The notes below the pieces were generated by a model that worked only from the letters and a program-made list of their open reading frames with translations, did no database searches and was not told where the DNA came from. A stretch of DNA of 702 nucleotides, from NCBI RefSeq assembly GCF_003334255.1, contig NZ_QOWU01000197.1. One strand, 5' to 3'. This DNA is from Escherichia coli (lineage in GTDB: Bacteria; Pseudomonadota; Gammaproteobacteria; Enterobacterales; Enterobacteriaceae). Below are positions 1-702 of this stretch, piece by piece (position 1 is the first letter of the stretch; every line of letters starts with the position of its first letter). Position numbers and translations under genes: made by a program.

Positions 1-336
1 GGCAAATATGAGCCAGCGGGGATTGTCCACCGCGGGGAGTTTGTCTTCACGAAGGAGGCAACCAGCCGGATTGGTGTCGGGAACCTGTACCGCCTGATGC
101 GGGGCTATGCGGAAGGGGGGTATGTGGGTGCTGCCGGAAGTCCGGCGCAGATGCGGCGGGCGGAAGGTATTAATTTTAATCAGAACAATCACGTGGTGAT
201 TCAGAACGACGGTATCAACGGACAGGCCGGGCCGCAGCTGATGAAAGCGGTGTATGAGATGGCCCGTAAAGGTGCGCAGGATGAGCTCCGGCTGCAGTTG
301 CGTGATGGCGGTCTGTTATCGGGGAGCGGGCGATGA
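1..336 (+). CDS. H: Tail tape measure protein, C-terminal fragment (lambda gpH-like); 5' end lies upstream of the window
   Basis: Frame 1 is open with no stop from base 1 to TGA at 334-336. It translates as GKYEPAGIVHRGEFVFTKEATSRIGVGNLYRLMRGYAEGG...NNHVVIQNDGINGQAGPQLMKAVYEMARKGAQDELRLQLRDGGLLSGSGR*. The ORF track shows only 97-336 because it starts at the first ATG, which is internal. From memory this closely resembles the C-terminus of lambda gpH, and it sits immediately upstream of an M-like gene as in lambda. No search was run. Confidence 0.85.
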   Translation, partial: GKYEPAGIVHRGEFVFTKEATSRIGVGNLYRLMRGYAEGGYVGAAGSPAQMRRAEGINFNQNNHVVIQNDGINGQAGPQLMKAVYEMARKGAQDELRLQLRDGGLLSGSGR

Positions 337-567
337 AAACCTTTCGCTGGAAAGTGAAGCCGGATATGGAGGTGAACTCGCAGCCATCGGTGCGTGAAGT
401 GCGTTTTGGTGACGGGTACTCACAGCGTATGGCGGCAGGGCTGAATGCTGACCTGAAAACATACCGGGTGATGCTTTCCGTGACCCGGGAGGAGGCCCGT
501 CATCTGGAAGCGTTCCTGGCAGAGCACGGTGGCTGGAAGGCATTTTTGTGGAAGCCACCCTATGCAT
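316..567 (-). other. Antisense ORF, probably non-coding
   Basis: An 83-aa minus-strand ORF lying almost wholly inside the M gene. Its translation is Pro/Ser/Ala-rich and low-complexity, as expected when the complement of a GC-rich coding region is read. I recognise no family and did not find a convincing ribosome binding site. Confidence 0.15.
321..326 (+). promoter_or_regulatory. Shine-Dalgarno-like ribosome binding site for the M gene
   Basis: GGGGAG at 321-326, 6 nt upstream of the ATG at 333, embedded in the last codons of the tape measure gene. Confidence 0.6.
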
Positions 568-662
568 ACCGGCAGATAAAGGTGACCTGTGCCGGGTGGT
601 CTGCGCGGGTCGGGATGTTGCGCGTTGAGTTCAGCGCGGAGTTTAAGCAGGTGGTGAACTGA
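333..662 (+). CDS. M: Phage minor tail protein M (lambda gpM-like), complete, 109 aa
   Basis: ORF with ATG at 333-335 and TGA at 660-662, 109 aa, the same length as lambda gpM. The N-terminus MKTFRWKVKP, the internal motifs VRFGDGYSQR and EHGGWK, and the C-terminus RQIKVTCA.W..RV.MLRVEFSAEF.QVVN match my recollection of lambda gpM with scattered substitutions. GGGGAG lies 6 nt upstream of the start, which overlaps the upstream stop (ATGA). Confidence 0.9.
   Translation: MKTFRWKVKPDMEVNSQPSVREVRFGDGYSQRMAAGLNADLKTYRVMLSVTREEARHLEAFLAEHGGWKAFLWKPPYAYRQIKVTCAGWSARVGMLRVEFSAEFKQVVN
649..654 (+). promoter_or_regulatory. Shine-Dalgarno-like ribosome binding site for the L gene
   Basis: AGGTGG at 649-654, 7 nt upstream of the ATG at 662, embedded in the last codons of M. 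Confidence 0.5.
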
Positions 663-702
663 TGCAGGATATTCACGAAGAAAGTCTGAACGAGTCGGTT
701 AA
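662..702 (+). CDS. L: Phage minor tail protein L (lambda gpL-like), N-terminal fragment; continues past the window end
   Basis: ATG at 662-664 overlaps the M stop codon (TGATG). The frame is open to the window end and translates as MQDIHEESLNESV, which resembles the lambda gpL N-terminus (MQDI..E.LNE as I recall it). AGGTGG lies 7 nt upstream. Position directly after M matches lambda gene order H-M-L. Only 13 codons are visible, so the call relies mainly on synteny. Confidence 0.8.
   Translation, partial: MQDIHEESLNESV

Follow-up and report, generated by a model that had tools for sequence, protein, structure and literature searches.

What does this stretch of Escherichia coli DNA encode, and does it hold anything that has not been described before? 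The stretch, which we will call the window, is 702 bases long. Reading its open reading frames and comparing it with phage lambda divides it into three consecutive coding segments, all on the + strand: the end of a gene for a homologue of gpH, the tape measure protein, a complete gene for a homologue of gpM, and the very beginning of a gene for a homologue of gpL. Judging from the sequence, we regard it as nearly certain that the window comes from inside the late operon for tail morphogenesis in a lambda-like siphovirus of E. coli, most probably a resident prophage; none of the results speaks against this. A preliminary description of the same DNA had proposed the order H-M-L on the + strand. 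The gpH-like end and the gpM-like and gpL-like sequences are indeed found where it placed them, and the BLASTP, Pfam and PDB chain matches agree with this. Its wording of three genes has to be softened. Three segments are present, but only M is complete, while H is a 3' fragment and L amounts to 13 codons.

The first segment, at positions 1-336 (+ strand), is the 3' end of the gpH homologue. Frame 1 stays open from the first base as far as the TGA stop at 334-336, and its 111 codons give a translation that ends in RDGGLLSGSGR. The assignment comes from BLASTP, phmmer, PHROG and the annotation of relatives, where this region is called tape measure protein. In BLASTP the fragment aligns without gaps to residues 744-853 of lambda gpH, with 83 of 110 residues identical (75%, E 4e-56). 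In phmmer it matches residues 743-853 of PDB 8iyk_H, the tape measure chain in the lambda tail structure (E 2.2e-49). Adding 742 to the number of a window residue gives its counterpart in lambda gpH, so that window residues 1-111 are the equivalent of gpH 743-853, and both proteins end with GR before the stop. The PHROG tape-measure families phrog_24 and phrog_1716 are matched too. TIGR01541 reaches 74.1 bits against a cut-off of 104.75, with only profile positions 263-332 of 332 lying within the window.

One search gave nothing. A Pfam scan of the 111 residues of the H fragment returned no match even at E<=10. Pfam is silent here because no Pfam-A model covers the final 111 residues of tape measure proteins of the lambda type; PF06791 and PF09718 sit further upstream in full-length H relatives (854-870 aa). 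We did not count the Pfam result against a tape-measure identity, the direct alignment to lambda gpH and to the PDB chain being decisive. Comparison with the lambda proteins and their Pfam families had been proposed in the preliminary description. It yields direct matches for gpH and gpM and PF05939 for M, but no Pfam family for the H fragment. As a separate observation, the gap in Pfam-A at the C-terminus of lambda-type tape measure proteins includes a structurally resolved coiled-coil helix.

In lambda, gpH is cleaved to gpH* and gpHC (PMC10721106; PMC12617516). The latter is a C-terminal fragment of about 14 kDa, released once the tail has been assembled, of which three copies stay bound to gpI (PMC12617516). 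The H fragment of the window falls within the equivalent of gpHC, the portion that is cleaved off in lambda. In the lumen of the lambda tail tip, gpH residues 818-842 build a three-helix coiled coil that rests on the gpI tripod (PMC10721106); their equivalent is window residues 76-100, bases 226-300. Gap-free alignment maps the C-terminal helix as a whole (lambda gpH 818-849) to positions 226-321 on the + strand. A gpH chain of 32 residues, PDB 9e7m_Ha, is matched by residues 77-107 of the window.

The genes are packed so tightly that they share bases. In an ATGA at 333-336 the start codon of M (333-335) lies over the stop codon of H (334-336), and in a TGATG at 660-664 the stop codon of M (660-662) shares one base with the start codon of L (662-664), both read on the + strand. 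Both overlaps are invariant in a four-way alignment of the window, lambda, the E. coli SCU-106 chromosome and phage PhiR12_2_star. A Shine-Dalgarno-like GGGGAG is found at 321-326, six bases upstream of the M start, and a Shine-Dalgarno-like AGGTGG at 649-654 ahead of the L start. An ATGA overlap together with a Shine-Dalgarno-like motif is the arrangement expected for translational coupling.

The second segment, at 333-662 (+ strand), encodes the complete gpM homologue, a distal tail protein also known as tail tip assembly protein M, in 109 codons followed by TGA. It aligns with lambda gpM without gaps over its entire length, 86 of 109 residues being identical (79%, E 1e-65). The Pfam family PF05939 (Phage_min_tail) covers it with model positions 1-108 of 108 (score 129.4, E 9.3e-38), the PDB chain 8iyk_M, 'Tail tip protein M', matches residues 1-109 (E 1.7e-54), and the PHROG minor tail protein families phrog_14 and phrog_21806 are matched as well. 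An identical protein appears in 8853 index blocks of public assemblies. In the window itself and in all relatives examined, the M gene follows the tape measure gene and precedes gene L.

What gpM does in lambda is known from structures. In cryo-EM it is a hexameric ring with the gpV tube on one side and the gpL/gpJ tip on the other, and it has a tail-tube-like beta-sandwich fold which is conserved across siphophage distal tail proteins (PMC10721106). With 79% identity to lambda gpM, the protein of the window would be expected to form a hexameric ring too. In Ur-lambda, gpM residues K2, W6 and R80 are reported to contact the side-fibre collar (PMC12617516). All three are kept in the window gpM, and side-fibre-like proteins are encoded downstream of J in related prophages.

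The third segment, at 662-702 (+ strand), comprises the first 13 codons and two further bases of a gene for a gpL homologue (tail tip hub, or minor tail protein L), identified by its translation and by comparison with L of SCU-106. The ATG at 662 opens MQDIHEESLNESV, which runs off the end of the window. Against the corresponding MQDIRQETLNECT of lambda gpL, 8 of 13 residues are identical. The L gene of SCU-106 begins with exactly these 13 codons. Its product of 232 aa is 77% identical to lambda gpL and reaches 380.8 bits with TIGR01600, for which the cut-off is 70.75. The reference families for gpL are TIGR01600 and PF05100, whose conserved C-terminal cysteines belong to an iron-sulfur domain. 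In the alignment, the lambda cysteines are kept in the C-terminal part of SCU-106 L; only 13 codons of L lie in the window. For the window proteins, homologues at 75-79% identity with solved structures already exist.

Is the window then simply a piece of lambda? The preliminary description took it for a relative of lambda and not lambda itself, and this is borne out by 74% nucleotide identity over the 702 bases and 75-79% identity at the protein level. Such DNA identity is far from the near-identity required for membership in Lambdavirus lambda, and the window does not belong there. Most of the divergence does little to the proteins. Third codon positions account for 53 of the 88 differences from lambda in H and for 45 of the 76 in M, and purely synonymous codon changes number 32 in H and 33 in M. 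Such an excess at third positions is the mark of selection on the + strand frames and puts the three coding segments far beyond chance. The similarity is also uneven: bases 1-100 are at 90-94% and bases 101-250 at 58-64%. Taken together, the 74% identity and the uneven divergence therefore point to a lambdoid lineage other than lambda. From its sequence, we place the window in the lambda H-M-L tail module as carried by this lineage, which is common in E. coli.

The weakly similar stretch deserves a comment. At the protein level, gpH residues 744-778 are unchanged between the window and lambda. The drop corresponds to gpH 779-817, a linker between this invariant 35-residue block and the tip-lumen helix. 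Several speculative explanations can be offered. The change near base 100 might be a mosaic recombination joint, or the linker between two conserved elements of gpHC might be weakly constrained. A lineage-specific variant of the processing of gpH to gpH* and gpHC, or of docking in the tip, can be imagined in place of relaxed constraint or mosaic recombination, and we consider it very improbable.

Could the window hide an additional element, such as a non-coding RNA, a gene on the opposite strand or a programmed frameshift? Two features invite the question. One is an open reading frame of 83 codons on the minus strand at 567-316. The other is a run of six G residues in H (115-120), at which a deletion of one base in PhiR12_2_star splits H into two annotated coding sequences. 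We give this idea almost no credence. The substitutions follow the + strand frames, and no Rfam match (at E<=1), promoter-like site, or direct, inverted or tandem repeat was found in searches of the window. A terminator-like hairpin on the minus strand at 32-14 is at chance level (1 found, 0.3 expected). The minus-strand frame was rejected as a gene on the pattern of substitutions and because no record carries a minus-strand annotation there. Frameshifting at the run of G residues was rejected too. Lambda has GGCGGT at this site, and the related loci L005, L010 and L012 have G117T and G120T; since lambda and several close relatives lack the run, it is not a conserved recoding site. The absence of an Rfam match, promoter or repeat is in keeping with the earlier statement that nothing undescribed is present, and the reading of the window as part of an ordinary late tail operon stands. 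In PhiR12_2_star itself (L002, about 12115), the run is one G shorter, and the H coding sequences are annotated at 35436-37871 and 37823-38008. If real, that deletion would cut the tip-lumen helix off from the remainder of gpH; alternatively, it may be a sequencing error in the homopolymer.

The flanks of the segment can be seen in its relatives. The closest of the 13 loci compared is on the E. coli SCU-106 chromosome, with 699 of 702 bases identical (99.6%). The three mismatches are A139G, which changes Ser to Gly in H, and the synonymous T213C and G359A; the gpM proteins are identical (by position, WP_000847280.1). None of the 13 loci is identical to the window across all 702 bases, and the 100-base stretch 131-230 has no exact match in IMG/VR. 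The SCU-106 prophage (NZ_CP053234.1, about 4766346-4812300) possesses a full lambda-like set of head, tail and lysis genes, Q and int/xis. Its late genes run terminase, W, portal, protease/scaffold, D, E, FI, FII, Z, U, V, G, T, H, M, L, K, I, J and tail fibre, with gpG and gpT encoded ahead of an H of 857 aa. A lambda-type tape measure protein is characteristically about 850 aa long and largely helical, and its gene comes after the chaperone genes G and T. Upstream of these are genes for integrase, excisionase, exonuclease, dicB, regulators, replication functions, RusA, the Q antiterminator, holin and lysozyme. The preliminary description had suggested looking for lambda-like tail genes on either side of H-M-L and for an integrase. 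In the relatives V-G-T lie upstream and K-I-J downstream, and SCU-106 carries the integrase. The order V-G-T-H-M-L-K-I-J is found in SCU-106, PhiR12_2_star, lambda and ten further E. coli chromosomes with an identical gpM. The late operon of a phage or prophage, as claimed earlier, is thus what is seen around the near-identical segments of SCU-106 and PhiR12_2_star, and from these we infer that the window most likely has the same neighbourhood.

The whole SCU-106 element lies between potC and potB. This site is inside the potABCD spermidine/putrescine transporter cluster (NZ_CP053234.1; L014 14347-15465, L001 28378-30571). A gene of the YkgJ family, with a cysteine cluster, is found between the last tail gene of the prophage and potB, and the right-hand neighbours of the prophage recur at the related loci L004, L005 and L012.

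In the interval that separates J from the side tail fibre gene, most related prophages have a gene for a 46-residue toxin of the Hok/Gef family (L004 17120-17260; also L005-L008, L011 and L012), a position which in lambda, L009, L010 and L013 is taken by lom (Ail_Lom). In L010 (CP028112.1), three genes for NleG-type T3SS effectors follow the tail fibre genes (18506-20330).

Does the segment come from a prophage that can still make virions? The source might instead be the remnant of a lambdoid prophage, defective or cryptic, with tail genes that no longer build virions. In favour of this, E. coli genomes have a median of 2 and up to 12 matching places each. Insertion sequences do occur in the morphogenesis region of some relatives: L010 has an IS110-family transposase among its head genes (2438-3418) and L013 an IS66 element inserted after J (16875-19291). 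Even in the SCU-106 prophage, several pseudogenes of the early region are frameshifted. Yet all three reading frames of the window are intact, its differences from lambda are mostly synonymous and at third positions, and the head-tail gene set of SCU-106, the closest relative, is uninterrupted. We think a remnant unlikely.

The same genes could also have come from the genome of a free temperate phage, derived from virions and not integrated. Sequenced phage genomes form the second-best class of matches. Escherichia phage PhiR12_2_star (PV340551.1) is 99.3% identical to the window at the DNA level, while 1720a-02 and Stx-converting phages are at about 96%. On the other hand, the closest match (99.6%) is on an E. 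coli chromosome, as are 9157 of the 9195 matching places, and this origin seems to us rather improbable. It should be added that a free phage and a prophage are stages of one life cycle and not different entities, and that 702 bases cannot tell them apart. A resident prophage remains our preferred source. A literature search on PhiR12 found no paper describing PhiR12 phages.

The segment is also among the most widespread in E. coli. A match to the window is present in 3654 of 5426 complete E. coli genomes, and 188 records of the phage collection match it, many of them Stx-converting. Every strong match is to an E. coli chromosome or an E. coli phage, in agreement with the enterobacterial genome suggested earlier. 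One of the 188 phage records bears a name starting with 'Campylobacter', which is unexpected; this may be a mislabelled or contaminated record. In short, the H-M-L segment is already known. It has been sequenced and annotated many times before and brings no new biology.

How, then, might these genes work? For their expression, and for the assembly and cleavage of their products, we reason from lambda. The late genes of lambda are transcribed as one long late transcript. H, M and L of the window would likewise be read from a single long transcript, initiated far upstream at a late promoter under Q antitermination, a reading we favour because the window has no promoter-like site and because a Q antiterminator gene precedes the late genes of SCU-106. 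Translation of the three genes would be coupled through their overlapping stop and start codons. Inside the conical tip, the C-terminal helix of gpH would form a trimeric coiled coil seated on the gpI plug. The gpH C-terminus of about 14 kDa would be cleaved off after the tail has been assembled. Six copies of gpM may form the ring that joins the three-fold tip, made of gpL, gpJ and gpI, to the six-fold gpV tube, and this ring may also help to anchor the side-fibre collar. gpL and gpJ would make up the tip's last ring.

Taken alone, the H-M-L segment matters little; it labels the region as tail DNA of a lambdoid prophage or phage. Its practical relevance is that of a prophage marker and of a repeat that can mislead genome assembly or favour recombination among prophages sharing a host.

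We know several systems with which the window can be compared. In lambda itself (J02459), H occupies 10542-13103, M 13100-13429 and L 13429-14127, and the window has the same order and the same ATGA and TGATG overlaps. M has 109 aa in both, L of lambda has 232 aa as in the SCU-106 relative, and the alignments are free of gaps at 75-79% protein identity. Stx-converting and other lambdoid phages of E. coli (1720a-02, CP-1639 and Stx1a/Stx2a phages), together with PhiR12_2_star, are in the range of 95-99.3% over the whole window, and the annotations in PhiR12_2_star and these phages are tail length tape-measure protein H and tail tip assembly proteins M and L. Where Stx phages differ is in their cargo and regulatory modules. 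More distant is the Dit protein of siphoviruses in general, for example of T5 and SPP1. The beta-sandwich fold is common to gpM and Dit (PMC10721106), and in comparison with Dit, gpM is a minimal, single-domain version of 109 residues.
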